IMG/VR virus record: IMGVR_UViG_3300042554_001750
Direction: 5' to 3' (one strand)
Source: a virus
Taxonomy: Duplodnaviria; Caudoviricetes
DNA: 64,000 nucleotides
The number at the start of each line of letters is the position of its first letter. Position 1 is the first letter of the stretch. The position numbers and the translations under genes were made by a program. Shown piece by piece: positions 27,879 through 47,501 of this stretch. A model generated the notes under the pieces. The model was not told where the DNA came from. It saw nothing but the letters and a program-made list of their open reading frames with translations, and searched no databases.

Positions 27879-27913
27879 GTATGGGATAATATATAGTTGA
27901 ATAATATGCGCTT

Positions 27914-27944
27914 ATTATACGCATATTATTCAATTTTGTCAACC
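27914..27944 (-). promoter_or_regulatory. sigma70-type promoter for rnh
   Basis: TTGACA (27937-27942), 17 nt, TATAAT (27914-27919). Confidence 0.85.
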
Positions 27945-29574: not shown

Positions 29575-29621
29575 TAAATTAAATTAGGCTGTGCAAAGAA
29601 TATTATTCAACGCACAACCTA

Positions 29622-29650
29622 AGTATACATGAAAAGCTTTTTATTGACAA
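29622..29650 (-). promoter_or_regulatory. sigma70-type promoter for DGQH gene pair
   Basis: TTGTCA (29645-29650), 17 nt, TATACT (29622-29627). Confidence 0.65.
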
Positions 29651-29662
29651 CAAAATGGGTAT

Positions 29663-31103: not shown

Positions 31104-31181
31104 AAGAAAACCCAGATTGATAAATAATAGATATAGTGTAGCATAGTTACGCAATAAAGTCAACTATTTACGGAAACCAAT

Positions 31182-32582
31182 ATGAAATTTATAGAACTAA
31201 TGGAAGGCGCAGAGCCAAAACTACCCGGAGCACCCAGTGGCATACAGATTATGACTCCTCAGCAATTCGTTGCTAAGAGTGCAGCCGGTGAAGAACCTGA
31301 ACCTGAAAAAGGTGTAACGGAAGGTCTAGGGGACACCAAAACTGAAGTCTTAGGCACATACAAAGGCTGGAAGTTTGAAATTGAAACTCAAGAAGAAGAC
31401 GACCGCTATGTTACATTCTACGGTGCTGTAAGTCCTGAAGGTAAGTGGCACAGTTTACCCAAGCGTGCCAGTGCTGAACAGTTTAAGCAGTTTGTTGACA
31501 GTAAAAGTGTAACGGAAGCAACCAAACTTGCTGCTCCTACCCGTCCAATTGGTGATCCAGAACTAACAGACTATTTGGATCGTATTCGTAATCAAGAGAA
31601 AAAGAAAACAGACAAGTATAAGTTACCATATATTCACCGTAGTAGCGTAGTTGGTTACTATAACGAAGAAGGTAAAAAGTATAATGTTGATGCTATCAAA
31701 CAGGCATTAGCTGAAAGACCAAAAACACTTCTCAAAAAGAATGAGAAGATGAAGCATAGCGACGGAACTGATGAACAATTTTTTAACGTTGGTTTTGCTG
31801 CACTTGTAGGTATCGCACTAGATGAAAACACAAATGAATTAATAGTAGTAAATACATGTCCTGGTGCGGGTAGTTGCAAAATAGATTGTTTTGCAATGAA
31901 GGGAGGCAAGGTGCAATTCCAAGGCCCATGGCTAAGCGATGGGCGCATTCTTACATATCTATTAAATGACCCAAGTGGTTTCTTCAATCAATTAAAAACA
32001 GAAATTGATAATGAAGTCAAGAAAGGTGCCAAGAAAGGATACAAGGTAAGTATTCGTTGGCATGATGCTGGTGACTTCTTTAGTCCTGAGTATGTAGATA
32101 TGGCATTTAATCTAGCAAAGAGTTTACCTAATGTAGACTTTTATGCTTACACAAAAGTTGCTGATGTTGCGTTAGGTGAGAAGCCCGACAACTTTATGAT
32201 TAACTGGAGTGAAGGCGCAAGTGCTTCACAAGAGAAGAAGGTAAAGGGTAGTGATCCTAGTTTAGAAAAAACAAAGAACAGCAGAATTATTCCAAGCAAC
32301 TTATTCTATGATTTATTAGTGAAGGACGAAAAGAAGAACTTGGTTAAGGGTCCTGAAGGCCAATGGCAAGTGATACCTGACAAGTTACCTGAACTAAAAC
32401 AACGACTAGCAAAAGAATACGGACTAAGTCCAAATAGTATTCTTAGCTATAGTGAGTGGGAAAGTAAAGTCAAGGGTAAAGATAAATCACCATTGAAGTA
32501 CAATGTGATTATTGCACCTGGCGAACCTGATTTAACTGCTAAGGATGCAGGAGTATTGAGTACATTGTTACTCAAGCATTAA
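31182..32582 (+). CDS. late protein with head-targeting-like N-terminus and GP88-like Cys-rich domain
   Basis: MKFIELME|G; TCPGAGSCKIDCFA; IRWHDAGDF; FYAYTK; ATAAATA at 31120-31126. Confidence 0.7.
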   Translation: MKFIELMEGAEPKLPGAPSGIQIMTPQQFVAKSAAGEEPEPEKGVTEGLGDTKTEVLGTYKGWKFEIETQEEDDRYVTFYGAVSPEGKWHSLPKRASAEQFKQFVDSKSVTEATKLAAPTRPIGDPELTDYLDRIRNQEKKKTDKYKLPYIHRSSVVGYYNEEGKKYNVDAIKQALAERPKTLLKKNEKMKHSDGTDEQFFNVGFAALVGIALDENTNELIVVNTCPGAGSCKIDCFAMKGGKVQFQGPWLSDGRILTYLLNDPSGFFNQLKTEIDNEVKKGAKKGYKVSIRWHDAGDFFSPEYVDMAFNLAKSLPNVDFYAYTKVADVALGEKPDNFMINWSEGASASQEKKVKGSDPSLEKTKNSRIIPSNLFYDLLVKDEKKNLVKGPEGQWQVIPDKLPELKQRLAKEYGLSPNSILSYSEWESKVKGKDKSPLKYNVIIAPGEPDLTAKDAGVLSTLLLKH

Positions 32583-33402
32583 TCTTAAGTAGTTCGTTGA
32601 TAGTATACAAGTTACGCATATAGGGCGATACATCTTCTAATACACTTGAAGGTAAATCGCCCTTTCTTCTTGGGCCGTATTTTACTTCAAATTCATAGCC
32701 ATTAATGTCTTGGAACATACAAGTCATTTCATAAACTGTTTTACCTACACCATGCCCTAATGATTCAACACTATTGCTAGGCTTATCAATTGCTGTTTTT
32801 AATGCATCACAAATTTCCATGACATGGACATAATCACGCAGACATGTGCCATCTTTGGTATCATAATCATTGCCGAATATTGTGAACTCACCAGTCTTAA
32901 CTGCTCTCATTAAATTGAGCATTAATCCGTCTGGATTTGTGGGAGGCACAACTGTGCTACCTATCACATTATAAAATCTAAAAATGCTATAATCTTTTTT
33001 GTTGTGTTGTGTGCAGTATTCACGGACTACATCTTCTGCGGCTCTTTTGCTAATACCATATGCACTAGCACAACCTTCGGCAGCGCCAGTACTGGCAAAA
33101 ATAAAATTCTTTGTTTTTATTTTATTCACAACATTCATTGTGCCGTTCAAATTAGTGATATAATATTGAATAGGCATCTTCTCACTTTCGCTTACATTAA
33201 CCTTTGCCGCTAAATGAATAACACAATCAAATTCTTCTTCTAAATTGAATTGACGGTTTATATCACAATGGTAAAAAGTATGCGGGTCAACTTGCGGATA
33301 GTTAATATCTAATCCATGAACCTCGTATTCATCTTTTAACAAATGTGTTAAATGTGATCCAATGTATCCTGAACTACCAGTGATTAAAACTTTCTTTACC
33401 AT
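32572..33402 (-). CDS. NAD-dependent sugar epimerase/dehydratase (GalE-like)
   Basis: LITGSSGYIG, IHLAA, FASTG, YGISK (YxxxK), FRFYNV, DGTCLRDYVHV, RRKGD. Confidence 0.92.
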   Translation of the reverse strand: MVKKVLITGSSGYIGSHLTHLLKDEYEVHGLDINYPQVDPHTFYHCDINRQFNLEEEFDCVIHLAAKVNVSESEKMPIQYYITNLNGTMNVVNKIKTKNFIFASTGAAEGCASAYGISKRAAEDVVREYCTQHNKKDYSIFRFYNVIGSTVVPPTNPDGLMLNLMRAVKTGEFTIFGNDYDTKDGTCLRDYVHVMEICDALKTAIDKPSNSVESLGHGVGKTVYEMTCMFQDINGYEFEVKYGPRRKGDLPSSVLEDVSPYMRNLYTINELLKINA

Positions 33403-34724
33403 GCGAATAATTCCTCTTTATCTTCTGTGGGTATAAAATTAGGATCTTTTGTTAGATATGTATCTTCATCTGTATAGATTACACGAAACTTATGTTTATT
33501 CGTCAACACACTACGAATATCATCAATGCAAATTACTTTTCGTCCCAAACTTGCGATATAATCTTTTAGTTTTACAGTGGTCTCGTTGCAAATCTTTGCC
33601 GTATTATTATTAGATTGTTTTGTTTTAAAATCATTAAAACATTCATTCCATTTATGAAATACTGTATTTTCTATACTACCTGCATGACTCAAAACACCTT
33701 TATTATACCAATTTTCAGCAGTAGCAAACATATGATATGCATTTAATATATCTGTTGCCATATTCTTTTTATTTGTTTCAAAAAAGTAACGGCTGTCAAA
33801 GTTTTTTGTCCATCGTTGATCACTTAGGCAGAATGTGGGCAATTGTATGTGCTGTTCATAAAATGCCATACCATAGCTTTCAACTGTGCTAGGATTAAAT
33901 GCAACTCTTGCGCTTGTAATAAAATCTACTTTTTCTTTACCAACAATACTAGAATGAATGTCATACTTGACACCTAACTTAGATAAACGGTCCTCAAATT
34001 TTTTGACACCATTGGGGCTAGTCATTACTTTAGCAGGAAGTTTAGTCTGCTCAATCAAGTCAATAAACAATTCAGGATTTTTACCTTCTTCCCAGCGACC
34101 AACAAACAATACTCCCTCTCTAGGCGTGTGATGTTCTTCTAAAAGTCCACGCTCTGTGATAGGTATAGGAAGATGATATACTGTATCGCTGATGTTTAGT
34201 TGATTAAATTTGCTTTGTGTGCCAACATATATACCCGATGTTTCTAGCTGCTGTCGCATTAATTCATTTGTATTATGTAAAAATGGATTTTTAGTATCTT
34301 TGAAAATTTGACTTTCAAGATGTGTATAGGCAATAATCTGAATTACATCTTCAAGTCCCATTGTACTTGCAACCTGAACTGTCTCATATGTGTTACAAAT
34401 AAACGCATCATATAGATTATGCTCTAATGCTTCTATGATAGCATTTCTAAAGTTCGCCATTCTTTCATAGCAAAATGTATCACCATACATAAAGATATTG
34501 CTATGGTCTGTATAACGCAATGATTCTAGTGGTGCAATAACATTTGCTTTTAAAGATTTTACAAACTCGTTGTCTTGTGGCTCTTTGTCGGTGATAATAT
34601 CAACTTTGATATTACGACTATCCATTAACTCACAGAAGCTTTTAGCAAATTGTCCTATACCACCGTGAGGTATTAGTGTTTGATAACTAACTAAAAAACC
34701 AATTCTTTTATCGTATGTTCTCAT
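33396..34724 (-). CDS. GT-B glycosyltransferase
   Basis: PHGGIG, LFVGRWEEGKNP, ESYGMAFYE. Confidence 0.8.
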   Translation of the reverse strand: MRTYDKRIGFLVSYQTLIPHGGIGQFAKSFCELMDSRNIKVDIITDKEPQDNEFVKSLKANVIAPLESLRYTDHSNIFMYGDTFCYERMANFRNAIIEALEHNLYDAFICNTYETVQVASTMGLEDVIQIIAYTHLESQIFKDTKNPFLHNTNELMRQQLETSGIYVGTQSKFNQLNISDTVYHLPIPITERGLLEEHHTPREGVLFVGRWEEGKNPELFIDLIEQTKLPAKVMTSPNGVKKFEDRLSKLGVKYDIHSSIVGKEKVDFITSARVAFNPSTVESYGMAFYEQHIQLPTFCLSDQRWTKNFDSRYFFETNKKNMATDILNAYHMFATAENWYNKGVLSHAGSIENTVFHKWNECFNDFKTKQSNNNTAKICNETTVKLKDYIASLGRKVICIDDIRSVLTNKHKFRVIYTDEDTYLTKDPNFIPTEDKEELFAW

Positions 34725-34954
34725 TTCTTTAATTGCCAGATTAAAAATTCTTCTTTGCTGATCCAATATTTTTGTACGATCGGGTCACCGGGCCCGGTAA
34801 TCCAATTTTCGCCATAGTAGGCAATTTTACCCCAAAGTGGTTTTTCAGATAAAAAACATTTTTTTGGAATCCAACAGAGTTTTAATTTCCAACCTCTGGT
34901 TCTGTTTAATCCCCAATCTTCTGAAAGAGGCGCCTGCTGGGCATCTCCGTACAT
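34721..34954 (-). CDS. hypothetical Trp-rich protein
   Basis: WKLKLCWIPKKCFLSEKPLWG; TAATG coupling to queE stop region. Confidence 0.6.
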   Translation of the reverse strand: MYGDAQQAPLSEDWGLNRTRGWKLKLCWIPKKCFLSEKPLWGKIAYYGENWITGPGDPIVQKYWISKEEFLIWQLKK

Positions 34955-34957
34955 TAA

Positions 34958-35809
34958 TCAGGTACCCCATTCATTCTTAAACAGTGGCACTTGAAGTCTA
35001 TCACTATAACGCCAACCGTTGTTCATAGCTTCAATAGCAACATTCTTAGCATTAAGAGTATACACTGGTTCTACCCCGCCACAAGGCATCAGGTAAACAG
35101 GACCTGTGAAGCCAGCTTTACGATATAAGTTTACTGCTTCTTTTGCTTCTTCTACATCTTCTTTAGTTGCTACCACAAACTTCAAATAAGTGAAACCATA
35201 TTCATCATATTGAGCAACAACATCAGGCTTTATAGCTTCATCCCATTTTTCACCTGAAATACTTAGTTTAGGACTAACACTAAATGTTACGCTAAAATAA
35301 CCTTTATCATGATGCCATTCACGATGCAACCATTGTCTAAATTCTTTAGTTAATTCTTGAGTGCCATTTGTCTCAAAGGTTAGTTCCTTCAATGGTCTCA
35401 TTTTTTCGTGCGAAAGTAATTCAGGATACGATCTTTGCCATCCAAGCAGAGGTTCACCCCCTGTGATAACCAAGTGCTCATCTTGCCAAGACCGTCCAGG
35501 AAGTAAATCAATAATACTACTAACAATAGTATCGGTATTGAGCACAGGACTAAGATGTTTGAAACGAGGGTCCCAAGATGCATAACTATCACATCCAGTG
35601 CTGACAAGCGGAAGGGATTTATAATCTGTATAAGTTTCTGCATTAATCGCAATTATATCTCTTTCTGTACTTAATTGACCTTTTGGCATGCCGAACCCGC
35701 CGCATGTAAAATTGCATCCAAAAGTTCTTAGGAAGACACTAGGTACACCCATGTATCTACCTTCTCCCTGTATTGAATAAAACAACTCTGATATTTTTAA
35801 ATGGCTCAT
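34958..35809 (-). CDS. queE: 7-carboxy-7-deazaguanine synthase (radical SAM)
   Basis: ISELFYSIQGEG..GVPSVFLRTFGCNFTC..GCDS; ITGGEPLL; FETNGT; SVSPKL; RLQV.L. Confidence 0.93.
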   Translation of the reverse strand: MSHLKISELFYSIQGEGRYMGVPSVFLRTFGCNFTCGGFGMPKGQLSTERDIIAINAETYTDYKSLPLVSTGCDSYASWDPRFKHLSPVLNTDTIVSSIIDLLPGRSWQDEHLVITGGEPLLGWQRSYPELLSHEKMRPLKELTFETNGTQELTKEFRQWLHREWHHDKGYFSVTFSVSPKLSISGEKWDEAIKPDVVAQYDEYGFTYLKFVVATKEDVEEAKEAVNLYRKAGFTGPVYLMPCGGVEPVYTLNAKNVAIEAMNNGWRYSDRLQVPLFKNEWGT

Positions 35810-36975
35810 ATTTGTTCCGAAATTAATTTTGCTGTGTATGGAGCTAATGTCCAACCTAGATGTCCGTGACCTGTATTATAAAATACATTTTTACATTTGT
35901 CACTTTTTTTGGTAATAGGCATCATATTCGGAGTCATTGGTCGCAAACATGCCCATTGTGTATAATCATGCGTGTTAATACGGGGAAAGTTTGTATGCAC
36001 CCATCGCAATAGTGGTTCAACTCTGTCCCTGCGAATATCATAGTTTTCACCTGTTAGTTCAGCAGTGCCAGCAACACGGAACCTATTACCTAAACTTGAA
36101 GTTACAATTTTGGCTTTATCATCAAGTAAACTAACTTTGGGCAATAAAGATGAATCTACATTATTGATAGTAATACTATAGCCCTTGACAGGATAGATCG
36201 GTAATTTATCACCCAAGCTTTCAGCTATGTCAACACTGCCTACTCCAGCACATATGACAACACAATCAGAATGATCCATTAGATACTCAATATCTGCTTC
36301 GTCGTTATAGTAAAACTTTACACGATATTTTTTCTCTAAGACTTTTGCTAACTGATAGCAAAATTTATGTATGTCACCTGTCCAATCGCTAGGAGTCCAA
36401 GCAGCACCAACCACACCTTTAATATCTTTTAAAGATGGATCTAGTGCTATTGTTTGTGCAGGTGTTAGTATATCCCACTCAACGTTGTTATTATTGTAAA
36501 GTTCTTTTGCAACTTTAGCAGAGTCAAAATACTTTTCATCTTTATAAAAGTGAAGTATGCCACAATCACTACGGTCAAACTCTAACTGTTCCTGGTTGCA
36601 AATTTCGTCATACAATTTTCTTGACTCTAAGCCCATGGCTATGGTTTTTTCAGTATTTGTTTTATACTGATTGGTCATAGTGTTGTAAAGAAATTTACTC
36701 ATCCAACTCCATTGCTTAAAGTCAAGCCGAGGACGAATAAGTAACGGGGCATCTTGGGTAAACATCCATTTAATGCCCTTCTTAACATTGCTCCATGTTG
36801 TCCATACTTCACTATTACTAACAGAGACTTGACCCCCATTAGCAAAACTAGTACGCATGGCAGGGTGAGGTTCCTGTTCAAATACAGAAACTTTATGTCC
36901 TGCTTTGGCTAAATAGTAAGCTGTCGTAATACCAGCGATACCTGCACCAATAACTGCTACATGTTTTTTATTCAT
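35806..36975 (-). CDS. dadA: D-amino acid dehydrogenase-like flavoprotein
   Basis: VIGAGIAG, TSFANGGQ, YPVKGYS, WACLRPMTP, NTGHGHLGWT. Confidence 0.9.
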   Translation of the reverse strand: MNKKHVAVIGAGIAGITTAYYLAKAGHKVSVFEQEPHPAMRTSFANGGQVSVSNSEVWTTWSNVKKGIKWMFTQDAPLLIRPRLDFKQWSWMSKFLYNTMTNQYKTNTEKTIAMGLESRKLYDEICNQEQLEFDRSDCGILHFYKDEKYFDSAKVAKELYNNNNVEWDILTPAQTIALDPSLKDIKGVVGAAWTPSDWTGDIHKFCYQLAKVLEKKYRVKFYYNDEADIEYLMDHSDCVVICAGVGSVDIAESLGDKLPIYPVKGYSITINNVDSSLLPKVSLLDDKAKIVTSSLGNRFRVAGTAELTGENYDIRRDRVEPLLRWVHTNFPRINTHDYTQWACLRPMTPNMMPITKKSDKCKNVFYNTGHGHLGWTLAPYTAKLISEQI

Positions 36976-37615
36976 GTTTATTCTCATAATTAAAAGAGTT
37001 ATTATCACCTAAAAACCATTTAGGATTGGTTTCAACAACATACTTTTTAGTACAAACCTTAAAATCAGGGAATAATAGTTCTTTAGGATTGCTAGCAGCA
37101 TCAAAAAATATACATCTATTATTTGGTTGTGCAGCGTACTGTCCATTATCTAGTTCAATAAAATTGAAACTTTTATGATCCTCAGGCCATTCAGCATAAC
37201 TAGTATCAATAATGTTCAAATCAGGAGCACTATGATCTACGGTAAAAAGATAATTGCCCTGATAGAAATTTTTATCTTTGGCATAAAATTTACAACTCAA
37301 ATTTCTTAGAAATGCCTTTTGCATGATTGTAAAATCATAACTAAAACAATCCCAAATTTGCAATGTATCAAGGCTTAAAAATTTGGCAGGATCTAAATCT
37401 TTATTTCTACTTACAAAAGCATGAAGTGGCAACTTATCGTATAGAGCACCATATCTTGGTAGATAAGCCTCTATACGAAAAGCCTGGCTGCGTAAACTTT
37501 TGATACTCACCCAAATACAAGGTTCATACTCATCATGACCTTTTGTAAAGTCATATAAGAATTCTCTGCGTACAAAACAATGTACTGGTGGTATGTTTGC
37601 GACTAAGTGTGCCAT
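36968..37615 (-). CDS. conserved hypothetical protein
   Basis: MAHLVANIPP..LYDKLP..QIWDCF..AAQPNNR. Confidence 0.75.
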   Translation of the reverse strand: MAHLVANIPPVHCFVRREFLYDFTKGHDEYEPCIWVSIKSLRSQAFRIEAYLPRYGALYDKLPLHAFVSRNKDLDPAKFLSLDTLQIWDCFSYDFTIMQKAFLRNLSCKFYAKDKNFYQGNYLFTVDHSAPDLNIIDTSYAEWPEDHKSFNFIELDNGQYAAQPNNRCIFFDAASNPKELLFPDFKVCTKKYVVETNPKWFLGDNNSFNYENKHE

Positions 37616-38116
37616 TTAATTGAATAAGTCCTCGTTCCATTCACGGTGACCTTCACGAAAGGCCATGTTTGCTTGTGTCTCTCTAACTTCTACACGGTAG
37701 CACCATAGGCGTTCGCTTTCTCCCGGTCCCCACATGTCAGGAATGTAGACACCATTAACATACTTGTAAAGCATGTCGGCTAGACCTTCACAGCCTAAGC
37801 GTGGAAGTATAGTTAGTTTAGCCATCTTTTTTTCTTGCAACATTTTAAATGTTTCAAGTTCTGGATCATCTTGCGCTACAAGCAATGTATGGTCAAACTG
37901 ATCTTCTAGAATTTTCTTAAGTTCTTTCAATCCACCGTAATCAGCAGCCCAATTGCGAACATCAAGATTATTAGTACCAAAATAAAATTTCATACTAAAA
38001 CTATATCCATGTATCATATTGCAATGACTGTCAGCACGCCATTGACGATACGCACAGGGAAATGCGTCATGGTATTCTTTAGTACTTGTATATTTGTATG
38101 TAATTGGATTATGCAT
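37616..38116 (-). CDS. queD: 6-carboxy-5,6,7,8-tetrahydropterin synthase
   Basis: CAYRQWRADSHC..IHGY, DYGGLK, FDHTL, GCEGLA, VEVRET. Confidence 0.88.
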   Translation of the reverse strand: MHNPITYKYTSTKEYHDAFPCAYRQWRADSHCNMIHGYSFSMKFYFGTNNLDVRNWAADYGGLKELKKILEDQFDHTLLVAQDDPELETFKMLQEKKMAKLTILPRLGCEGLADMLYKYVNGVYIPDMWGPGESERLWCYRVEVRETQANMAFREGHREWNEDLFN

Positions 38117-38196
38117 ATTTTCTCCTATGTTAATTTTAGCATAGGCAGCGGAATTTTTAAAGCGGGACGATGCTGAGACCGCTATACTTATTTACC
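38117..38196 (-). promoter_or_regulatory. structured leader of queD (pseudoknot riboswitch candidate)
   Basis: TAAATA; AGCGG-13 nt loop-CCGCT; TTAAAAA; loop CAGC complementary to GCTG; CCTATG/CATAGG hairpin over SD. Confidence 0.6.
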
Positions 38197-38655
38197 ATTT
38201 TTATTTAGTTCTGTCTCAGCAACTCGTTTACGCAAACTACTTGAACTAAAACTATGATCACGACCGTTGAATACTAATTGTATTCCACGTTTCTCGCAAA
38301 TGGCACGACCAGTAAAATCTTTCTCCATGTACTCAACACCGAGTATACGCACATCAACGGGCAATGTCAAGAGGATATCTTCTAAGTCTTTTTCCGTATT
38401 GTAGACAACTATTTCATCTACAAAGCGGCAAGCACTTAATGTAATTTGGCGCTCTACAATACTTTGTATGGGAGCATTCTTTTCAGGACGATCCCAACTA
38501 GCATTGTTTTGTAATCCACAAATAAGATAGTCACAGTGATTTTTAGCCTCACTTAGCATTGCGACATGTCCGGCATGCAGTAAATCAAATTGGCTAAAAG
38601 TTATACCAATTCGTAAGCCTTGAGCTTTTAATTCTTTAATTCTGTTGAAGATCAT
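38188..38655 (-). CDS. cytidylyltransferase (TagD-like, HxGH)
   Basis: FSQFDLLHAGH, YLICGLQ, IVERQ, RDHSFSSSSLR. Confidence 0.88.
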   Translation of the reverse strand: MIFNRIKELKAQGLRIGITFSQFDLLHAGHVAMLSEAKNHCDYLICGLQNNASWDRPEKNAPIQSIVERQITLSACRFVDEIVVYNTEKDLEDILLTLPVDVRILGVEYMEKDFTGRAICEKRGIQLVFNGRDHSFSSSSLRKRVAETELNKNGK

Positions 38656-38888
38656 TCTTGCAATCTTCTCCACATGATCTTTTGTTCATGTTCTTTTAAG
38701 AATTCATCCTCTCCTGCAAATTCGGGAGAATCTTTTAGTATTGAATCCACTAACCATTTAATTCTATAAAGGTCCTGTTTTAAGTAAAACGCAGTATAAC
38801 CATCGTTATATGAACTGTTAACTTCTACACCGGTCATATAGATTTGATGATGTACGCTAGTGTAGTCCATTGGTTTCTTAAAGCCCAT
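38652..38888 (-). CDS. hypothetical protein
   Basis: ORF track; coupled. Confidence 0.65.
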   Translation of the reverse strand: MGFKKPMDYTSVHHQIYMTGVEVNSSYNDGYTAFYLKQDLYRIKWLVDSILKDSPEFAGEDEFLKEHEQKIMWRRLQE

Positions 38889-39148
38889 TATACTAACTCC
38901 TCTAAGATTCCCAATAACTCAGCACCGATCAAAAAGAATCCTGCTACAAAAAATACACCACCTCCTTGAAGTAGTGCAACACCGGCGACAATTCTAAGAG
39001 CACTCTTTACAAGGCTAACATAAAAATGTCCTTTGCTGGGATCCTTGGGTTGTATATTAATCATAGGTGGATGATGAGGACAGCGTCCTTGTTGAAAATC
39101 ACAATCAGGGCTATAATCTTTTTTACAGATATCGCACTTCATCTGCAA
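38888..39148 (-). CDS. small membrane protein with CxxC
   Basis: CDICK..CQQGRCPHH; HFYVSLVKS..AELLGILEELV. Confidence 0.65.
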   Translation of the reverse strand: MQMKCDICKKDYSPDCDFQQGRCPHHPPMINIQPKDPSKGHFYVSLVKSALRIVAGVALLQGGGVFFVAGFFLIGAELLGILEELV

Positions 39149-39819
39149 CCCTTAGTTGCAATGTTTAAAAACTCTTGTCTAGCAGCAGGATCATTTTTGA
39201 AACCTCCACCGAGACGGCTAGTGACAGTTGAACTACCTGTATCCTCAACACCGCGACTCTTAACACAATAATGCTGTGCGTCAATCATAACCGCAACATC
39301 TTCTGTATCTAAGATAAACTGTAGTGTGTGGAAAATCTGTTCAGTTAACCGTTCTTGAATCTGCGGACGCTTGCTGAAATATTCTACAATCCGATTAATT
39401 TTAGATAGTCCAAGCACTTTATCCTTAGGCACATATGCAACAGTAGCGGTGCCATCAATGATAACAAAATGGTGCTCACAATTGCTTTGTACATTGACGT
39501 TCCTTTCAACGACCATTTCGTTGTACTTCATCTTGTTATCAACTGTAGTACACTTGGGGAATGCTTCATAATCAAGCCCCCAAAAGATTTCGTTTACATA
39601 CATCCGGGCAACACGTTTGGGTGTTTCTGCTAGACTGTCATCAGACAAATCTAATCCAAGCAATTCCATTATTTGCTTGAAATTAGTTTCAATGATTGAA
39701 ATCTTGGCTTTGCGATCAAGATCAACTTCCTTCATAGGAGTTTCAACACCCATTTTAACTAGATGTTCGTGAACTTTTAAACCAAGCTCAGGGTCTGTTT
39801 TTGTTTTATTGTAACTCAT
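39139..39819 (-). CDS. folE: GTP cyclohydrolase I
   Basis: ETPKRVA, SNCEHH, GLSKINR, RPQIQERLT, HYCVKSRG. Confidence 0.97.
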   Translation of the reverse strand: MSYNKTKTDPELGLKVHEHLVKMGVETPMKEVDLDRKAKISIIETNFKQIMELLGLDLSDDSLAETPKRVARMYVNEIFWGLDYEAFPKCTTVDNKMKYNEMVVERNVNVQSNCEHHFVIIDGTATVAYVPKDKVLGLSKINRIVEYFSKRPQIQERLTEQIFHTLQFILDTEDVAVMIDAQHYCVKSRGVEDTGSSTVTSRLGGGFKNDPAARQEFLNIATKGCR

Positions 39820-39881
39820 AGAATCCTTCCTTACGCGGATATGAAATTGGAAAATGTGCTACCGTTGTGTAGCACATTTAT

Positions 39882-40070
39882 TTATGCCTTAGCTTCTTTG
39901 CGGGCGTTTTTTGTTTCGGTAATTTCATTACGGCGAGCCTTGACAGCCTTCGCTAGTTCTGCCAATGCTTTACGGGCACGGGTGCCTGCAGCATTATTAC
40001 CTTTTTCAAACTTTTCATGTTCGGCTAAGTATGCTTCTAAGTGTGTATTAATATCATTGTGTGCGTTCAT
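39882..40070 (-). CDS. histone H1-like Hc1-type small basic protein
   Basis: KFEKGNNAAGTRARKAL.EL..KARR. Confidence 0.7.
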   Translation of the reverse strand: MNAHNDINTHLEAYLAEHEKFEKGNNAAGTRARKALAELAKAVKARRNEITETKNARKEAKA

Positions 40071-40333
40071 TTTGTTTCCTTTACTGTTTTCTTTTTTGTC
40101 TTTTTTACTGCTGTGACAGGAATAGTTGACTCATGTTTTAGTATAGCATTTCTAACTTCACTAAGCAATGCTTCATCATCCCATTCTAATTTAGTAGTAC
40201 CATCTTCGTATGTAGTTACTGTAAGATGTGTGCCCTTAACTACTTTGGGCCATGCTTCGCTATTTTTTGTTTTCTTTTCCTTTATAACACTGGCTGGTGT
40301 TGAATCAGCAGTGGTTTTCTTTTTTGTTGCCAT
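40067..40333 (-). CDS. Lys-rich hypothetical protein
   Basis: ORF track; GAGGAG SD. Confidence 0.65.
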   Translation of the reverse strand: MATKKKTTADSTPASVIKEKKTKNSEAWPKVVKGTHLTVTTYEDGTTKLEWDDEALLSEVRNAILKHESTIPVTAVKKTKKKTVKETK

Positions 40334-40340
40334 TATCTCC

Positions 40341-41375
40341 TCACTTTAAAAATACATCATTAATCTGACGGTTAACACGGATGAATGTGGTGCACTTACT
40401 AAGTTGTTTAAGAGTTGGTGCTCCAACATATGTGCAAGTGCTACGCAAACCTCCGAGTAAATCTAGTACAGTATTTTTTACTGCACCGCGATATTTAACT
40501 TCAACTGTGCGACCCTCACTACTGCGATAATTAGCGACACCTCCGTGATGCTTGTCCATAGCAGTATCACTACTCATGCCATAAAACACTACACGAGGAT
40601 TCTTACCATCTTCACTAATTACTTCGCCTTCGCCTTCATCATGTCCAGATAACATGCCACCCAGCATTACAAAATCAGCGCCAGCTCCGAAGGCTTTAGC
40701 GACATCCCCAGGACAAGTACAACCGCCGTCAGCAATAATGTGTCCACCAAGACCATGAGCAGCGTCCGCGCATTCAATGATTGCTGAAAGTTGTGGATAG
40801 CCAACGCCAGTTTGAATACGAGTAGTACAAACACTCCCAGGGCCAATGCCCACTTTAACAATATCGGCTCCACGTAGAATTAACTCCTGTGTCATGTCAG
40901 CCGTTACTACATTGCCTGCTATGATAGTATGCTTGGGATACAATCTACGAACATCAGCTACAAAATCACCAAAATGTTCGCTATACCCATTTGCAATATC
41001 AATACAAATAAAATGTATTGCAGGATTATCTTCTAGTATGGCTACTAATCTATTTAAGTCTTTTTCGCTAGTTCCAGTGCTTACGGCAAAATAATTGCCA
41101 CCGATATTATCAGTTAATTTAGGAAATTCATCACGACCTAGTGACTTTACTAGACAAGTAAACATCCTATGTTCGTAAAGTGCTACAGCCATAGAAGGAG
41201 TTCCTACACCATCCATGTTAGCTGCCATGACAGGGACTCCAGTCCATTCCCACCCACTATGCTTAAACTGGTATGTGCGAGTTAAATCAACTTCTTTACG
41301 GCTTGCTAGAGTACTACGCTTAGGACGAATCAATACATCCTTGAAATCTAGCTTAATATCATCTTCAATACGCAT
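40341..41375 (-). CDS. guaC: GMP reductase
   Basis: [46 protein letters not shown]. Confidence 0.96.
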
Positions 41376-41430
41376 TAACAATTGCCTCTAATAAAAACTA
41401 ACTATACAACAAAACAACTATAAAACAAAA

Positions 41431-41455
41431 GAAAACGGGAATAAATCCCGTTTTC
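41431..41455 (-). terminator. intrinsic terminator after dnaK
   Basis: GAAAACGGGA/TCCCGTTTTC stem followed by T-rich run. Confidence 0.8.
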
Positions 41456-41458
41456 CTT

Positions 41459-43336
41459 TTACTTGACTTCTGTAGTTTCTGCGTCTACTACATTTGGTTC
41501 CGTTTTTTGTTTAGCTTGTTCTGCTTCATACTTTTTACTAGTAATGGGACCAATTGCTTGATACAGTTCGGTAACCTTTTTATTGATTTCCTCAGCATCT
41601 TCACCCTTAAGTGCTTGCTCTAAATTGTCAAGTGCTTCCTTTGCTTTATTACTTTCTTCCTCTGTTACCTGATCTTTAAATTCATTGTAATCACTACGGA
41701 AGTTATTTAAAGCACCTTCACCACTGTTCTTTGCTTGAATCAGTTCAAGTTTCTTCTTATCAGCTTCTGCATTTTCTTCAGCTTCACGAACCATCTTATC
41801 AATTTCAGCTTCAGTTAATCCAGAATTAGACTTGATTGTAATCTTGTTTTCTTTACCTGTGCCTTGATCTTTTGCACTAACATGCATGATACCGTTAGCA
41901 TCAATATCAAGTGTTACTTCAATTTGAGGTACTCCACGCTTGGCTGGGGGAATTCCTTCAAGATTAAATTCACCTAACAATTTATTGTGTTGTACAAATT
42001 CTCTTTCACCTTGATAGACTTTGACAGTAACAGCAGGTTGATTATCATCCGCAGTACTAAACACTTGACTATGCTTGGTAGGAATAGTAGTGTTCTTTTT
42101 GATAAGCTTAGTCATGACACCACCCATAGTTTCAATACCGAGACTTAGAGGTGTAACATCAAGCAATAGAACATCCTTACGGTCACCTGCTAAAACACTA
42201 CCTTGAATAGCTGCACCAGCGGCAACTGCTTCATCAGGATTAACATCCTTGCGAGGTGCCTTAGCAAACAATTTTTCAACTTCTTCTTGAACCTTAGGCA
42301 TGCGAGTCATACCGCCAACAAGAATGACTTCATCAATGTCACTTGCTGTTACATTTGCATCCTTCATCGCAATCTTGCATGGTTCAATAGAACGCTTGAT
42401 TAATTCTTCAACCAAACTTTCTAACTTAGCACGGGTGAGCTTGATGTTCATGTGCTTGGGACCACTTGCATCAGCAGTAATGTATGGAAGATTAACATCA
42501 GTTTGGCTACTGCTGGACAATTCAATCTTGGCCTTTTCAGCAGCTTCTTTCAAACGCTGTAGTGCTAATACATCCTTAGTTAGATCAACACCTTGTTCCT
42601 TTTTAAATTCAGAAACAAGATAGTCCATGATGCGTTGGTCAAAGTCTTCACCACCTAAAAATGTATCACCGTTAGTGGACAGAACTTCAATCTGTTTCTC
42701 ACCATCAATGTTTGCAATCTCAATAATAGAAACGTCAAAGGTACCACCGCCCAAGTCATAGACAGCAACCTTACGGTCTTTCTTATCAGCTTTATCTACA
42801 CCATATGCCAGTGCAGCCGCTGTTGGTTCATTGATGATACGCAATACTTCTAGACCAGCAATGCGTCCGGCATCCTTAGTTGCTTGACGCTGGCTGTCGT
42901 TGAAATATGCAGGGACAGTAATAACTGCTTGAGTGACTTCGTGACCGAGATAATCTTCTGCGGTCTTTTTCATCTTGCGCAAAACTTCGGCTGAAATTTG
43001 CGGAGGTGCAATTTCTTTACCTGAAACACGGACCCATGCGTCACCATTAGTTGCCTCATAGATTTCATATGGCATGAGGTCAATATCTTTTTGAACTGCG
43101 TTTTCTTTAAACTTACGACCAATCAAACGCTTGGCTGCATAGATAGTATTTTTGGGATTTGTTACTGCTTGTCGTTTTGCACTTGCACCAACTAAGATTT
43201 CATCGTTAGTGTATGCAATGATTGATGGGGTTGTACGTGCGCCTTCACTGTTTTCAATAACTTTTGTAGAACCGTTTTCTACAACTGCAACGCACGAATT
43301 GGTTGTACCGAGGTCAATACCTATTACTTTGCTCAT
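41459..43336 (-). CDS. dnaK: Hsp70 chaperone DnaK
   Basis: [54 protein letters not shown] linker. Confidence 0.98.
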
Positions 43337-43396
43337 ATTTTATCTCCTTTAAAAAAGCAAGAATATCGTAGGACCTGTAAGGCATCCTACGATATT
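43337..43396 (-). promoter_or_regulatory. ROSE-like RNA thermometer in dnaK 5' UTR
   Basis: 12-bp stem AATATCGTAGGA/TCCTACGATATT, then TCTTGCTTT..AAAGGAGA; TATAAATA immediately upstream. Confidence 0.75.
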
Positions 43397-43414
43397 ATTT
43401 ATACCTAAAAATTA

Positions 43415-44590
43415 TTAGAACTTAGATTCTCTAGTGTGTTTACGATAATCCGTAGACATGCGCAAATATTTCTCACCCTTACCCTGAAGGACATCACAAA
43501 TTCTATCAATAGTACCGTCATTATAGTTACTAATTTTACCCATATTGACATGTGGTTTCTTTAGTAGAATTTCTAACTTGTTTATAGCATCTTCTATTGA
43601 CCATGGAACATAGAGGCGTTCATGATCATTAGCAAAAGTTTCTGGGAAACTGCGATAAGCAGGATACAATACATTACAACCAAGAGTATCGGCCTCAGAT
43701 ACTGTGTTTGATACCCAATCTTGTAAAGCACAATTAAACAAAACCCTACTATCATTAAGAATATTATAGTAAGTATTCTTATCTAGATCCTCATAAATTG
43801 ACAGTTTGTTTTCTTCTTCTAATTTACGGGTGCGTTTCATATAACTATCATTATTGCTACGCAACTTGCCGCCGCTACACAAAACAAATTCAACTTCGTT
43901 AGGATGCCTACGATTATATTCTTCAATTAGATCCATAAAGAAATCGGGCTGCTTTTCCTGATCCCAACGCGCGGCAAATACAACACGCATTCTGCGCTTG
44001 TTGAATGGTTTAATTTTACCTTCAACACGTTCTTCAACTTCTTCTTTACCGAATGCTAGCCCTGAAATATTGTATATAGGACTAGTCCATCCAGCAATAC
44101 GCATATGAGCAACCATTTCTTCGTTTGTTGCGAGGACTCCGTCCACAAACTCATTAACCATTTGTTCGTAGAGGCCCATCCATTTCGCCATACCCCATAC
44201 ATGTACGAAATCGTCAGGATCAATGGACTGAGCAAGACACCTAACATAAATGCGGGGACGTAGATTACTAGGGACTTGATCCAGTATGTAAGGTAAACTT
44301 TCCATACCGGGCTGGAACATGTCTTCAAAGTAGATAACATCTTCATTTGTTACTTTTCCCTCTTTCATCAATTTGACAAGGTTCATCATTTGACTCATGG
44401 AGTAGTAGCTACGACCATGAGCATCCAATACCTGACCAGTAACGATTGCCTGATCACTGGTTAGTGTTTCGCCGGATACAATTTCGTATTTGATTTTTCT
44501 TCGTTTGAAAACACGTTCATTCCAATCAGTTAACTGAAGGGTATAACGCGCTTTATAGGGCTCTAGCCCCATGTAAAATAGTTTTCTCAT
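43415..44590 (-). CDS. GT-B glycosyltransferase
   Basis: VFAARWDQEKQPDFF, LQDWVSNTVSEA..GCNVLYP..SFPE. Confidence 0.8.
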   Translation of the reverse strand: MRKLFYMGLEPYKARYTLQLTDWNERVFKRRKIKYEIVSGETLTSDQAIVTGQVLDAHGRSYYSMSQMMNLVKLMKEGKVTNEDVIYFEDMFQPGMESLPYILDQVPSNLRPRIYVRCLAQSIDPDDFVHVWGMAKWMGLYEQMVNEFVDGVLATNEEMVAHMRIAGWTSPIYNISGLAFGKEEVEERVEGKIKPFNKRRMRVVFAARWDQEKQPDFFMDLIEEYNRRHPNEVEFVLCSGGKLRSNNDSYMKRTRKLEEENKLSIYEDLDKNTYYNILNDSRVLFNCALQDWVSNTVSEADTLGCNVLYPAYRSFPETFANDHERLYVPWSIEDAINKLEILLKKPHVNMGKISNYNDGTIDRICDVLQGKGEKYLRMSTDYRKHTRESKF

Positions 44591-44595
44591 ATTGA

Positions 44596-44841
44596 TTAGA
44601 AAAAGTTAATTTTTAACAATTTGCATACTGCATCATATGGATTTGATATCTCAACCCAAACATTAGATTTAATATCATATGTTTTGAATGCATCTACAGT
44701 AACATTCATTTTATCATTATTATATACTGTAGTCATATTGCATTTTCCCTCTAATACAAAATAATGTATATTAGAATCAGTAATGCTTCCTGTTATTGTT
44801 TCATTCTTATCTAGCTCAATTTGATTTATATTGTATGGCAT
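44596..44841 (-). CDS. small AT-rich late protein (cupin-like, tentative)
   Basis: HYFVLEGKC; own TAAATA plus hairpin upstream. Confidence 0.5.
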   Translation of the reverse strand: MPYNINQIELDKNETITGSITDSNIHYFVLEGKCNMTTVYNNDKMNVTVDAFKTYDIKSNVWVEISNPYDAVCKLLKINFF

Positions 44842-44890
44842 ATATTTTATGTAAAGAATGGCAGTTGCCTGCCATTCTATTTATATGCTT

Positions 44891-45106
44891 TTAAACCAAT
44901 TCAGCTTTTCCATCTATTTCCCAGTTGTCCTTGACAGGCTTTCCAGTAATAAATTTTGTATACTGACGGAATACATAACTCTTGTTACTGTATAGGTCAG
45001 ATTCGTCATATTTGTACCCAAACTGAACACAGAAATTAAGATACTTTTCTAGGTCCTCAAAAATCTGATTGACACGAGGATTGGGTTGAATAACGATTTT
45101 TGCCAT
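44891..45106 (-). CDS. hypothetical protein
   Basis: AAGGAG SD. Confidence 0.7.
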   Translation of the reverse strand: MAKIVIQPNPRVNQIFEDLEKYLNFCVQFGYKYDESDLYSNKSYVFRQYTKFITGKPVKDNWEIDGKAELV

Positions 45107-45117
45107 TTATATCTCCT

Positions 45118-45567
45118 TTAGATGGCTAGTTGTTGATAAGGTTGATGTGTTTTATAAGAAATTGTGGCACCGTTCTCACCGTCTTCGGATACGGTAATCT
45201 CAATGTCACGCCCGGGATAACGAGTAGCAATAACTTCATAAAGGTCATCGCTAATCATTTCACAACTCTTGAAATTCAATTCCAATGTGCCTTGGTAGAG
45301 CTTTTCTAGCCAACGCTTGAATTGGATAAACTCAATATCCCTATCGTTGTGAAATACTTGAATGCCTACGTTGAAATGAAAAATATGACGATGGGGAGTT
45401 CCCAAGAAACTTACATCATATTCATCACCAGTGGCAAGATTTGAGTCGGTTGCAGCAGCCGGGTACTTATGAATACCTTCTTTACGAAAGGTCACCCAGA
45501 TCATTCGGCGTGCTCGGTCGCGAATTCTTTCACGCTTTTCAGCCAATGCTTGTTCGTGTTGATTCAT
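45118..45567 (-). CDS. QueD-paralog T-fold protein (DpdL-like, putative CDG decarboxylase)
   Basis: LGTPHRHIF fits LxxxHRHxF; SCEM; VSEDGENG. Confidence 0.7.
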   Translation of the reverse strand: MNQHEQALAEKRERIRDRARRMIWVTFRKEGIHKYPAAATDSNLATGDEYDVSFLGTPHRHIFHFNVGIQVFHNDRDIEFIQFKRWLEKLYQGTLELNFKSCEMISDDLYEVIATRYPGRDIEITVSEDGENGATISYKTHQPYQQLAI

Positions 45568-45776
45568 TCATAACTCCGATTAAGTGTTGCCCACATCAAC
45601 CATTGATGGAAGGCGTTGTAAACTTTTTCTGCTTCTGTTGCATCTTGTTCAATTTTAATTCCGCGCACATAAAAGCCATCTTTTGCTACACGCAACATTT
45701 CAGACTCATTAGAGTGAAACAAGATTGTTGCAGGCTGAATGTCATGATCCAGATTAAAACTTGTAGTGTCGTCCAT
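45564..45776 (-). CDS. hypothetical protein
   Basis: ORF track; coupled. Confidence 0.6.
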   Translation of the reverse strand: MDDTTSFNLDHDIQPATILFHSNESEMLRVAKDGFYVRGIKIEQDATEAEKVYNAFHQWLMWATLNRSYE

Positions 45777-45940
45777 TATTCGTCACCGTAGCCTATACGC
45801 TGATTTTCTTCGTATTGGGCTTTGCGCAAAAGCCGTAATTCGTTTAAAACTTTATCAATTTTTTCTTTGTCTTTATTTTCGGCACTTTCCAAGTGCTTTA
45901 ATTGATTTTCTAAAATTCTAATTTGATTACTATAGTCCAT
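45776..45940 (-). CDS. 54-aa coiled-coil protein (not in ORF track)
   Basis: MDYSNQIRILENQLKHLES..IGYGDE; AGGAGA SD; TAATG coupling. Confidence 0.65.
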   Translation of the reverse strand: MDYSNQIRILENQLKHLESAENKDKEKIDKVLNELRLLRKAQYEENQRIGYGDE

Positions 45941-45941
45941 A

Positions 45942-47501
45942 CTATTCTCCTAACGCCTCTGTCATTGCATCATCACTATCAATGATTTCTTCATCAATTT
46001 CGGGTTCTGAATTTTCAAAACTAAACAGTTGATCAAACATAGTCATAGCGTTAACAGTCTTTTTACCACTAATACCCTGACTACCACTTTGCATTTGCGT
46101 CCATAGTTTGCTATGTCGCTCAATAACTTCTAAACTTTCAGCCTTTGTTTTCTTACTAAAGATTTCTTCAATCACATCTTTGTACAGTATACGATCAAAT
46201 GTTTCATTCATCAACATTTTTGGTATAACTCCCTGTTCATATCTACGGTTAGCTTCTTGAACACCATTGATATGCATCCAAACATTGTGACTTTGAACCA
46301 ATGTATAACTTAATGTATCCCAACTAGTTTTAGTTTCTTTACCGTGTTGACCCAAAAAGCCAACACCACGATAGCATAAATCTTTAAGTAAGAGTTTATC
46401 AGTTACTGGACTATCTGTAAATGTATCATGGATACCTTCAGCCAAAACAGCAGTGCTAAATTTGCGAGTATCATTAGCAAAGTTTTTATTTTCTGCGGTT
46501 TTTTCCATACTGTATGACCATTTTTTACCATGCTCAAAACTATTATTGAAATAAGCAAGGCCCTTAGCTGCACCATAAAATGGGCTAGCGCAGTCAAAAG
46601 TAATTTCCAAATTAGGATTGTGATATTTGCGTATTGCCTTTTTAATATCACTAAACAATACCGCATATTCCATGATACTAACACCTAGGCAATGAATTAA
46701 ATCATGTTTGCCCGGAATCAATAATCCATCATAGATAATATCAACTAATCTACGCAACATTAAATGTACATCAATTTTATTCTGACCACCGAATGCCCAA
46801 CCATTAAAATGATTGTCTGGATAGATATTTGGGTCACAATATTTTTTCATTTCAAGATACCAATCATCACTTTGAGTATGATTGCGACCTTGCAATACAT
46901 TTAAGAACTTACATTTGCCCGAACGGTTTTGAATAAAATATTCGTTGTTGATATGTGTAGCAGCAATCGCTTCTTCAATTGTGCTGATACCATGTGCTGA
47001 TTTACCAGTTTTGGGATCTTTGATATGAAAAGTAGTTAGTGACTGTGAAGGAATATCAAGACACATACCATAATCCATGTATGTATCCATCCATGTCAAA
47101 ACTTCCTTGCGCTTTTTCATGGCACGAGGACAGTTAGGATCCTTCCAATCAGCAGGCCACTGGCATTTTAGAATCTGAAATCCACCTGAGTCACCGAGCA
47201 TGAATGTGCCCGGTTCACGCTCACGGATAATGCTTTCATTTGGGTCATCTTTAGTGATATCTAAGTTAGCATGACCAGCACTGTACAATCCCCACTTATA
47301 ATAGTAAAGACCTTGTTGACTGTTTAAGAAATTCAAACATTCAACATCATTATTAAAACCAGCAGGAATCCTTGACTTCTCAAAATATTCCTCACCTTTG
47401 CGTTGCTTACCTAATCCACTGATGTAAAAACTACTAACAGCGGGCAAGAATAATGCCCACTCTGGATTGTGTTTACTAGAAAGATTATCTTGTTCCATCA
47501 T
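45942..47501 (-). CDS. TGT-family base-exchange enzyme (DpdA-like)
   Basis: MLGDSGGFQI, CLDIP, LNVLQG, GWAFGG, HCLGV, FDCASP, SHN; TGT CxCxxC zinc motif not evident. Confidence 0.8.
   Translation of the reverse strand: MMEQDNLSSKHNPEWALFLPAVSSFYISGLGKQRKGEEYFEKSRIPAGFNNDVECLNFLNSQQGLYYYKWGLYSAGHANLDITKDDPNESIIREREPGTFMLGDSGGFQILKCQWPADWKDPNCPRAMKKRKEVLTWMDTYMDYGMCLDIPSQSLTTFHIKDPKTGKSAHGISTIEEAIAATHINNEYFIQNRSGKCKFLNVLQGRNHTQSDDWYLEMKKYCDPNIYPDNHFNGWAFGGQNKIDVHLMLRRLVDIIYDGLLIPGKHDLIHCLGVSIMEYAVLFSDIKKAIRKYHNPNLEITFDCASPFYGAAKGLAYFNNSFEHGKKWSYSMEKTAENKNFANDTRKFSTAVLAEGIHDTFTDSPVTDKLLLKDLCYRGVGFLGQHGKETKTSWDTLSYTLVQSHNVWMHINGVQEANRRYEQGVIPKMLMNETFDRILYKDVIEEIFSKKTKAESLEVIERHSKLWTQMQSGSQGISGKKTVNAMTMFDQLFSFENSEPEIDEEIIDSDDAMTEALGE

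Follow-up and report, generated by a model that had tools for sequence, protein, structure and literature searches.

What glycosyltransferases (GTs) do among the genes of a DNA base modification pathway is the question raised by one stretch of a Caudoviricetes virus (IMG/VR record IMGVR_UViG_3300042554_001750). The stretch of 64,000 nucleotides, here called the window, holds between positions 32572 and 47501 the genes of a 7-deazaguanine pathway interleaved with two GT-B glycosyltransferases and further sugar genes. It corresponds to positions 34073-98072 of a linear IMG/VR contig of 108,457 bp, which is about 31% complete (CheckV) and is a fragment of a jumbo phage genome from an uncultured, very abundant clade. 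The initial annotation proposed that a QueC-less pathway supplies a deazaguanine to the DNA and that the embedded sugar enzymes may glycosylate it. The genes that it named (folE, queD, queE, a second T-fold protein, a gene like that of tRNA-guanine transglycosylase (TGT), two GT-B enzymes, an epimerase, a cytidylyltransferase and a DadA-like flavoprotein) are all real open reading frames (ORFs) on the minus strand, which holds every gene between 32.5 and 51.4 kb. A GMP reductase, an Hsp70 and an Hc1-like gene lie in the same span and had not been listed. Our analysis points to a module for DNA guanine replacement, and the leading explanation for the GT machinery, to which we give about an even chance, is that it decorates the deazaguanine with a sugar or another activated group. 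The core pathway is already known; the conserved GT module is an addition to it.

The part that goes beyond the literature searched is the tie between the family of the 391-residue GT and two deazaguanine proteins, DpdL and a DpdA-like transglycosylase. A scan of IMG/VR seeded with the GT homologue of phage ACP17, ASD50404, gave 566 relatives, and the 80 most ACP17-like loci, from diverse viral contigs, were analysed. The GTs of these best 80 of 566 loci mostly share 25-36% identity with the window protein. DpdL is present at 65 of the loci, a DpdA-like protein at 63, both at 52 and at least one of them at 76, where the same locus means within about 10 kb. DpdL and/or the DpdA-like gene usually adjoin the GT directly; the commonest order is DpdL, GT, DpdA-like, with the genes abutting. 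With the GTs clustered at 50% identity, DpdL is found within 4 kb in nine of ten clusters. By tblastn and profile methods together, the GT family occurs in cultured phages only in DpdL encoders (ACP17, BUCT-ZZ01, X1/BUDD, BCSR5, PA5oct and Phosso). A tblastn search of 50,697 phage records located the GT in just six (BUCT-ZZ01, two of ACP17, BCSR5, X1 and BUDD), all of which encode DpdL at a distance of 0-4 kb from the GT. The profile methods add EST35_0317 of PA5oct (E 1.8e-51), located between the DpdA-like gene and DpdL, and an annotated glycosyltransferase of Phosso that adjoins DpdL. For the 391-residue GT, the co-occurrence with dpdL and dpdA that the glycosylation proposal leads one to look for is therefore strongly positive, in 76 of 80 loci and in every cultured-phage homologue.

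One of the four exceptions, which is also a locus of the tenth GT cluster (L097, 9375-12670), carries PolA, a 202-residue ORF, the GT, phrog_887 and Vut_1. The contig has neither DpdL nor the biosynthesis genes. The phrog_887 protein, labelled 'queuine tRNA-ribosyltransferase', is a DpdA, and Vut_1 we take to be the family of the preQ0/preQ1 importer YhhQ. Since the GT is accompanied by a DpdA and a transporter of the YhhQ type, it is linked to deazaguanine even in this exception, and the locus has the look of a GT-DpdA pairing fed by salvage. The dependence is one-way. phiST, RHph_I1_18, Ahp1 and Bakedbeans encode DpdL and the GT family is absent from their entire genomes, which fits a tailoring enzyme downstream of the 7-deazaguanine (DG) pathway. 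CGPG_00072 of phiST was considered as a hidden GT and is ruled out (hhalign probability 0.2%). The DpdA-like proteins of GT-bearing phages have 416-540 residues, as against 259 residues for DpdA3 of phiST, which has no GT.

The AlphaFold2 model of the 391-residue GT, with a mean predicted local distance difference test score (pLDDT) of 88, has the two-Rossmann GT-B fold. Foldseek matches it with MshA, BshA, glycogen synthase and GlgM at template modelling (TM) scores of 0.6-0.7 and E values down to 4e-14; the closest fold matches are thus retaining GT4/GT5 enzymes, mostly with small acceptors. In BFVD the best matches are a 370-residue viral entry and the ACP17 homologue. The Pfam family Glycos_transf_1 (PF00534) is matched by 31 of the 38 members of the GT family (best E 9.5e-14), the window protein itself, at 23.8 bits, lying slightly short of the 26.4 cut-off. 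R208, E212, K213 and E299 are invariant in the family. The (E/D)x7E motif is kept, D291-x7-E299 of the window protein aligning with ExxxxxxxE of the ACP17 homologue. Because the invariant donor-binding residues and this motif are retained on a GT4 fold, the protein looks, as judged from sequence and model, like a catalytically competent GT4 enzyme. QTMAN_N (PF12038) has no match in the 38-sequence family or anywhere in the contig, and no QTMAN entry is found among the top 30 Swiss-Prot fold matches.

The pathway that the GT accompanies is familiar. The set of FolE, QueD, QueE, DpdL and a TGT-fold protein is that of a system described for Cellulophaga phage phiST, which encodes FolE, QueD, QueE, DpdL and DpdA3 and has no QueC (Cui, Hutinet et al., NAR 2023, PMC10516641). 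In the DNA of phiST 100% of the deoxyguanosine (dG) is converted to 2'-deoxy-7-deazaguanine (dDG), as determined by mass spectrometry, and dDG is the sole product measured for any DpdL system (PMC10516641). The reading of the window genes as a QueC-less FolE/QueD/QueE/DpdL/DpdA-type set was correct and agrees with this system. DpdL was defined as a QueD paralogue with the motif LxxxHRHxF and proposed to decarboxylate 7-carboxy-7-deazaguanine (CDG) (PMC10516641). The 149-residue protein of the window carries LGTPHRHIF, the DpdL-type motif that replaces CxxxHGH of QueD. Residues L55, H59, H61 and F63 are invariant in an alignment of 11 homologues, including those of phiST and ACP17. Its identity is 57.6% to ACP17 DpdL (E 8e-36) and 34% to CGPG_00067 of phiST (E 2e-8). 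The match of the DpdL family with the window QueD by hhalign is weak (34% probability); for phiST DpdL an HHpred match of 99.9% was reported (PMC10516641). Expression of ACP17 dpdL and dpdA alone in Escherichia coli gave no dDG, and the authors suggest that further enzymes may be needed (PMC10516641). In Vibrio phage Bakedbeans, the DpdL domain forms the C-terminal third of the 383-residue gp176 (L172:6212-7363), whose N-terminal 260 residues have no Pfam match; this possible fusion may hint at a DpdL partner.

The 519-residue protein is separated from PolB by two ORFs, one of 123 residues and one of 243 residues at the clamp position. It has no match in Pfam (including TGT, PF01702), PHROG, NCBIfam or PDB sequences, and neither phmmer nor a 47-sequence family profile finds anything relevant in the PDB. 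DpdA3 of phiST, a distant TGT homologue, was likewise detected by HHpred alone (PMC10516641). The AlphaFold2 model (pLDDT 89, predicted TM score 0.89) is matched by tRNA-guanine transglycosylases in all of the top 50 Foldseek PDB hits (E about 1e-7, target-normalised TM about 0.5). Aligned with hhalign, the 47-member family matches the 424-residue protein adjoining DpdL in ACP17 with 96% probability (E 2e-9); the match with DpdA3 of phiST (CGPG_00065), of a subfamily shared with Campylobacter phages, is marginal, 44% over 82 columns. D104 (in GDSGGFQ), S105, G107, D149, H270, G273 and D303 (in ITFDCAS) are invariant across 47 diverse homologues, and the protein also shows QG and HCLG. In bacterial TGT, as we take it, the two catalytic aspartates lie within DSGG(F/Y)Q and FDC. 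The family is very large: clustering gives 812 groups at 50% identity and over 6,700 at 90%. The TGT-family identity given at first thus stands by fold and profile-profile comparison and finds no counterpart among curated sequence models. Because the link to ACP17 is clear but the match to phiST DpdA3 marginal, the protein is filed, on the evidence of the model, as a DpdA-like member of the TGT superfamily, without assignment to a subfamily. Its fold, motifs and replisome-gene neighbours, together with the complete dDG substitution in phiST and the restriction resistance of PA5oct, suggest that it acts on DNA and inserts 7-deazaguanine.

The statement that queC is absent holds in part. QueC and TGT Pfam models have no match in the 108-kb contig (about 31% of the genome), QueC has none in the contigs of five relatives (105-133 kb), and none was found in the complete genomes of the GT-bearing cultured phages PA5oct, ACP17, BUCT-ZZ01 and Phosso. 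Two relatives, G008 (303 kb, 86% complete) and G010 (231 kb), whose DpdA-like proteins are 79% identical to that of the window, give two weak QueC matches each. The two ORFs of G008 (Table) are about 200 kb from the cluster. Both have SGG(A/T)DS and a C-terminal CxxCxxC, and the QueC match is confined to the C-terminal zinc-ribbon region. Neither a 264-kb relative nor the contig of the window has ORFs of this type. With such borderline ORFs in the clade, QueC cannot be taken as proven absent from this genome. In X1 the cluster includes a gene annotated as a member of the 3'-phosphoadenosine 5'-phosphosulfate reductase family (L088:3837-4370), and the BCSR5 cluster a 215-residue ORF with the PP-loop motif SGGKDS (L089:9264-9911), so some GT-bearing clusters may include a PP-loop ATPase other than canonical QueC.

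The other sugar genes differ in how widely they follow the pathway. A cytidylyltransferase-like gene occurs within 4 kb of the GT at 16 of the best 80 of 566 loci, usually directly upstream of DpdL. The nearest solved relatives of the protein are ethanolamine-phosphate and glycerol-3-phosphate cytidylyltransferases, and it likely activates the donor of the GT. A second scan, seeded with the 456-residue GT, gave 41 clade loci. This GT occurs together with QueE, FolE and the 391-residue GT in 38-39 of the 41, and the epimerase lies just downstream of it in 37. In BUCT-ZZ01 a homologue (38% identity) lies between FolE and the DpdA-like gene. The 456-residue GT and the epimerase, which the initial annotation had counted in, are therefore conserved with the pathway across the jumbo-phage clade and in BUCT-ZZ01. 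Distant homologues of this GT are found in Erwinia jumbo phages and in X1/BUDD, there away from the dpd cluster, and its tie to the pathway is therefore at the level of the clade, not universal. The epimerase scores 153 bits with the GalE model, below the cut-off, and its nearest PDB relatives are UDP-glucose 4-epimerases.

Conservation among the clade relatives separates these genes from others in the span (Table). The DadA-like gene, the 215-residue ORF, GuaC and Hsp70 are variable insertions and not part of the core; GuaC and Hsp70 look like recent ones. The DadA-like flavoprotein, listed with the pathway genes in the initial annotation, is dropped on this ground. For the 215-residue ORF no Pfam or NCBIfam match and no ferredoxin cysteine pattern was seen, and a search of a protein atlas gave merely sub-threshold 2H-phosphoesterase leads. 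It was considered as a conserved pathway member, with ORFs of 215 residues in the X1 and BCSR5 clusters; BLASTP shows no similarity. The 81-residue ORF shows a weak likeness (pairwise E 6e-5) to the cupin end of a cytidylyltransferase/mannose-phosphate-isomerase-like fusion that occupies the same position in one relative (L002:12284-13054). The deazaguanine/GT cluster of BUCT-ZZ01 has an annotated xanthine-guanine phosphoribosyltransferase (XGPRT) between QueE and QueD (L004:7093-7554). This XGPRT and the GuaC of the window could recycle guanine freed by base exchange or echo the tubercidin pathway; alternatively, the XGPRT may point to a route at the level of nucleotides. In a megablast search with the entire span, none of the 50,697 phage records matched. 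The upstream neighbours (26868-31163, minus strand) are a 5'-3' exonuclease (RNase H-like), a 140-residue ORF, a 403-residue ORF with just a weak ParB-like PHROG match (2.3e-5) and a UvdE-type UV endonuclease (E 8.7e-39).

Table. Features of the locus in window coordinates, with the number of clade relatives having sufficient flank (30 in all) that share the feature, and the QueC-like ORFs of relative G008
Feature	Position	Strand	Match or remark	Clade relatives
PolB	48671-51385	-	family searches	
243-aa ORF	47866-48597	-	position of the annotated sliding clamp in Phosso	
123-aa ORF	between the 519-aa gene and the 243-aa ORF	-		
519-aa DpdA-like DNA guanine transglycosylase candidate	45942-47501	-	TGT fold	30/30
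149-aa DpdL homologue	45118-45567	-	LGTPHRHIF	30/30
71-aa ORF between DpdL and GT	44891-45106	-	no family match	30/30, same position
81-aa ORF	44596-44841	-	no family match of its own	
391-aa GT4-type GT-B glycosyltransferase	43415-44590	-		30/30
Hsp70/DnaK	41459-43336	-	E 2.9e-261; 868 bits; full-length	0/30 at this place
GMP reductase GuaC	40341-41381	-	554 bits, exceeds cut-off; full-length	4/30 at this place
Hc1-like (chlamydial-type histone H1-like DNA-binding), 62 aa	39882-40070	-	Pfam Hc1 E 7.3e-15	28/30 (between the 391-aa GT and FolE)
FolE, GTP cyclohydrolase I	39139-39819	-	Pfam E 1.3e-62	30/30
161-aa cytidylyltransferase-like (TagD/ECT/RfaE-domain-II type)	38188-38673	-	Pfam CTP_transf_like; NCBIfam matches	30/30 (nucleotidyltransferase)
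QueD, 6-carboxytetrahydropterin synthase	37616-38116	-	PTPS E 1.1e-15; phrog_2389 E 6.5e-37	29/30
215-aa ORF	36968-37615	-	phrog_3704 (labelled 'ferredoxin') E 8.6e-85	10/30
DadA-like FAD oxidoreductase	35806-37008	-	family matches	2/30
QueE, radical-SAM CDG synthase	34958-35854	-	phrog_2076 E 1.4e-53; NCBIfam QueE models below cut-off	
456-aa second GT-B	33396-34766	-	Glycos_transf_1 weak, E 3.8e-4	
276-aa GalE-like UDP-hexose 4-epimerase (short-chain dehydrogenase/reductase), C-terminus shortened	32572-33402	-	Epimerase E 5.3e-34	
G008 PP-loop ORF, 222 aa	L253:985-1653 (G008:C1 near 296.8 kb)	-	QueC 22.1 bits, cut-off 22	
G008 PP-loop ORF, 211 aa	L254:961-1596 (G008:C1 near 283.6 kb)	-	QueC 27.6 bits, cut-off 22	

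The module can be set beside several known systems. Like phiST, it has QueC-less FolE/QueD/QueE, a DpdL with LxxxHRHxF and a distant TGT-fold enzyme beside the polymerase, and the base expected is that from CDG decarboxylation. Unlike it, phiST has no member of the 391-residue GT family in its whole genome and no cytidylyltransferase or epimerase in the region compared; the module thus adds two GTs and donor-making genes to the phiST-type set. ACP17 and PA5oct are closer in that they share a three-gene core of mutually adjoining DpdA-like, GT and DpdL genes, with QueE in the cluster and DpdL 56-58% identical. The DpdA-like protein of PA5oct is 33% identical to that of the window (E 1e-63), and PA5oct likewise has PolB, the clamp-position ORF and the DpdA-like gene in this order. 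In the regions compared, ACP17 and PA5oct have, unlike the module, a single GT and no GalE-like gene, and the GT is annotated just as 'hypothetical' or 'GT family 1'. The DNA of PA5oct resists restriction enzymes with G in their sites, and its modification is known from that alone (PMC12191111).

The T4-type DNA glucosyltransferases are, like the enzymes of the module, GT-B enzymes of phages, and they offer the parallel of a non-canonical base decorated after replication against host nucleases. The acceptor in T4 is the hydroxymethyl group on a pyrimidine (5-hydroxymethylcytosine) made at the nucleotide level, whereas here it would be a deazapurine inserted by a transglycosylase, and the top fold matches of the 391-residue GT are small-molecule GT4 enzymes (MshA, BshA), not the T4 enzymes. 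Glycosylated queuosines occur in eukaryotic tRNA. The tRNA queuosine GTs and HuiG are precedents for a sugar on a 7-deazaguanine derivative, their products being a tRNA base and a free natural product, respectively. In the biosynthesis of huimycin, HuiG glycosylates a 7-deazapurine on nitrogen; a GT with a Glyco_transf_4 domain, PF13439, is encoded in the huimycin clusters (bioRxiv 10.64898/2026.04.15.718813). In the same study, a QueC-less CDG pathway with a phosphoribosyltransferase and a GMP-reductase homologue leads to tubercidin. Our literature search, which did not extend to the supplements of the 2023 paper or to a 2024 review, yielded no report of DNA with a glycosylated deazaguanine and none of a link between a GT and DpdL.

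The proposed pathway starts from the gene identities, folds and genomic linkage observed here and from CDG synthesis and the dDG of phiST DNA as described in the literature; from these we infer the activity of DpdL, the acceptor, donor and attachment site of the GT, and a final product with a sugar on the base. FolE, QueD and QueE would convert GTP to CDG by established biochemistry, and DpdL would remove the carboxyl group to give DG. Once the phage DNA is replicated, the 519-residue TGT-fold enzyme would put the deazapurine in the place of its guanine. As the genomic linkage suggests, the 391-residue GT would decorate the deazaguanine, using a donor probably supplied by the cytidylyltransferase-like enzyme; in this clade the second GT and the UDP-hexose 4-epimerase would join this step. 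Decoration could take place on the free base before insertion or on the DNA afterwards. Since the 391-residue GT resembles enzymes with small acceptors, action on the free base is slightly favoured; the far greater size of the DpdA-like proteins in GT-bearing phages would agree with this. C7 is a pyrrole carbon rich in electrons, and because decarboxylation leaves it free, a C-linked sugar is chemically conceivable; whether at C7 in this way or by N-glycosylation as in huimycin, the linkage is speculation by analogy. Virion DNA would then bear a decorated deazaguanine and not plain dDG. A role of the GT in the pathway also fits the inactivity of ACP17 dpdL and dpdA alone in E. coli.

Several points weigh against a decorated base. 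The role of DpdL as CDG decarboxylase is a proposal of the literature, and the activity has never been demonstrated or reconstituted. DG is without an obvious oxygen nucleophile; attachment would need C7/C8, N2, O6 or another intermediate, and GT4 enzymes are normally O-glycosyltransferases. The nucleotidyltransferase resembles enzymes that form CDP-alcohols, so the donor may not be a sugar, or not a simple hexose. At loci like L097 the partner of the GT is a salvage transporter and not DpdL, so the GT may accept something other than DG, and given the borderline QueC-like ORFs of G008 the base in the clade could differ from DG. The literature searched holds no mass spectrometry of DNA from GT-bearing phages. 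Gene adjacency is a sign of functional coupling, not proof of a reaction.

The strongest alternative is one that we regard as unlikely though far from negligible. The DNA may carry plain dDG, with the GT needed for its formation but leaving no sugar behind, as a partner of the DpdA-like protein or DpdL or through a transient intermediate or carrier. That no product except dDG has been measured for a DpdL system and that DG offers no obvious acceptor oxygen both agree with this, and so does the failure of dpdL and dpdA of ACP17 on their own, which fits a missing helper; the length of the DpdA-like proteins of GT-bearing phages beside the short DpdA3 of phiST can be read in the same way. A helper would, however, hardly be expected to retain the donor-binding and (E/D)x7E motifs of active GT4 enzymes. 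A nucleotidyltransferase is often in the cassette and the clade adds a second GT and an epimerase, which is expensive for a helper role, and four phages (phiST, RHph_I1_18, Ahp1 and Bakedbeans) have DpdL and manage without the GT.

In the alternative that the initial annotation itself offered, the targets of the GTs and sugar-nucleotide genes would be proteins of the virion, glycans of the host envelope or, as may be added, another DNA base. Proximity to the dpd genes would then reflect a shared early region of nucleotide metabolism. We consider this improbable. Phage GTs with such roles are common, and the distant homologues of the 456-residue GT in Erwinia jumbo phages and, far from dpd genes, in X1/BUDD are in its favour. 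No thymidylate-synthase-type hydroxymethylase, a source of another acceptor, is found in the contig, so the evidence for this alternative is weak. The 391-residue GT, moreover, adjoins DpdL/DpdA in the T4-like ACP17, the Kyanoviridae phage BUCT-ZZ01, PA5oct, the 469-kb Phosso and hundreds of contigs, although identity across these lineages is merely 22-36%; tblastn found it solely in phage records that encode DpdL, and L097, which has no DpdL, still places a DpdA and a YhhQ-type transporter beside it.

That the module instead makes a free deazapurine nucleoside or glycoside, like tubercidin or huimycin (bioRxiv 10.64898/2026.04.15.718813), or modifies tRNA and not phage DNA is very improbable: the precedents of these two pathways (HuiG in the latter), the GMP reductase inside the window cluster and the XGPRT of BUCT-ZZ01 speak for it, but GuaC is at this place in so few relatives, the TGT-fold gene is invariably present as a neighbour of the polymerase and the clamp-position ORF, guanine is modified at the DNA level in phiST and PA5oct, and salvage of the guanine released in base exchange would explain XGPRT and GuaC equally well.

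A decorated deazaguanine would reach beyond the window. We think it possible, somewhat short of an even chance, that a globally abundant set of phages (this clade, PA5oct, ACP17, BUCT-ZZ01, X1 and Phosso) replaces guanine with a glycosylated 7-deazaguanine by means of a dedicated GT4-type enzyme, the group being a sugar or another nucleotide-activated one; N2, or the C7 that DpdL leaves free, could for instance be the site that bears it. The question is directly testable, since at least five phages that carry the cassette are in culture. Even with plain dDG in the DNA, the pathway would require the GT for a role not yet explained. A decorated base would explain why dpdL and dpdA alone are inactive in E. 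coli, give a function to a conserved gene of PA5oct, a jumbo phage relevant to therapy, and bear on restriction enzymes, END and Dag-type defences, sequencing chemistries and nanopore base-callers. To our knowledge, the 7-deazaguanine modifications described in DNA all have small groups at C7 (H, carboxyl, amide, cyano and aminomethyl variants), and the DNA glycosylations that we know of are all on pyrimidines, of the hydroxymethyl or hydroxy kind. With a glycosylated deazapurine the two chemistries would meet in a DNA base of a new class and, as far as we know, the first purine in DNA to bear a sugar.

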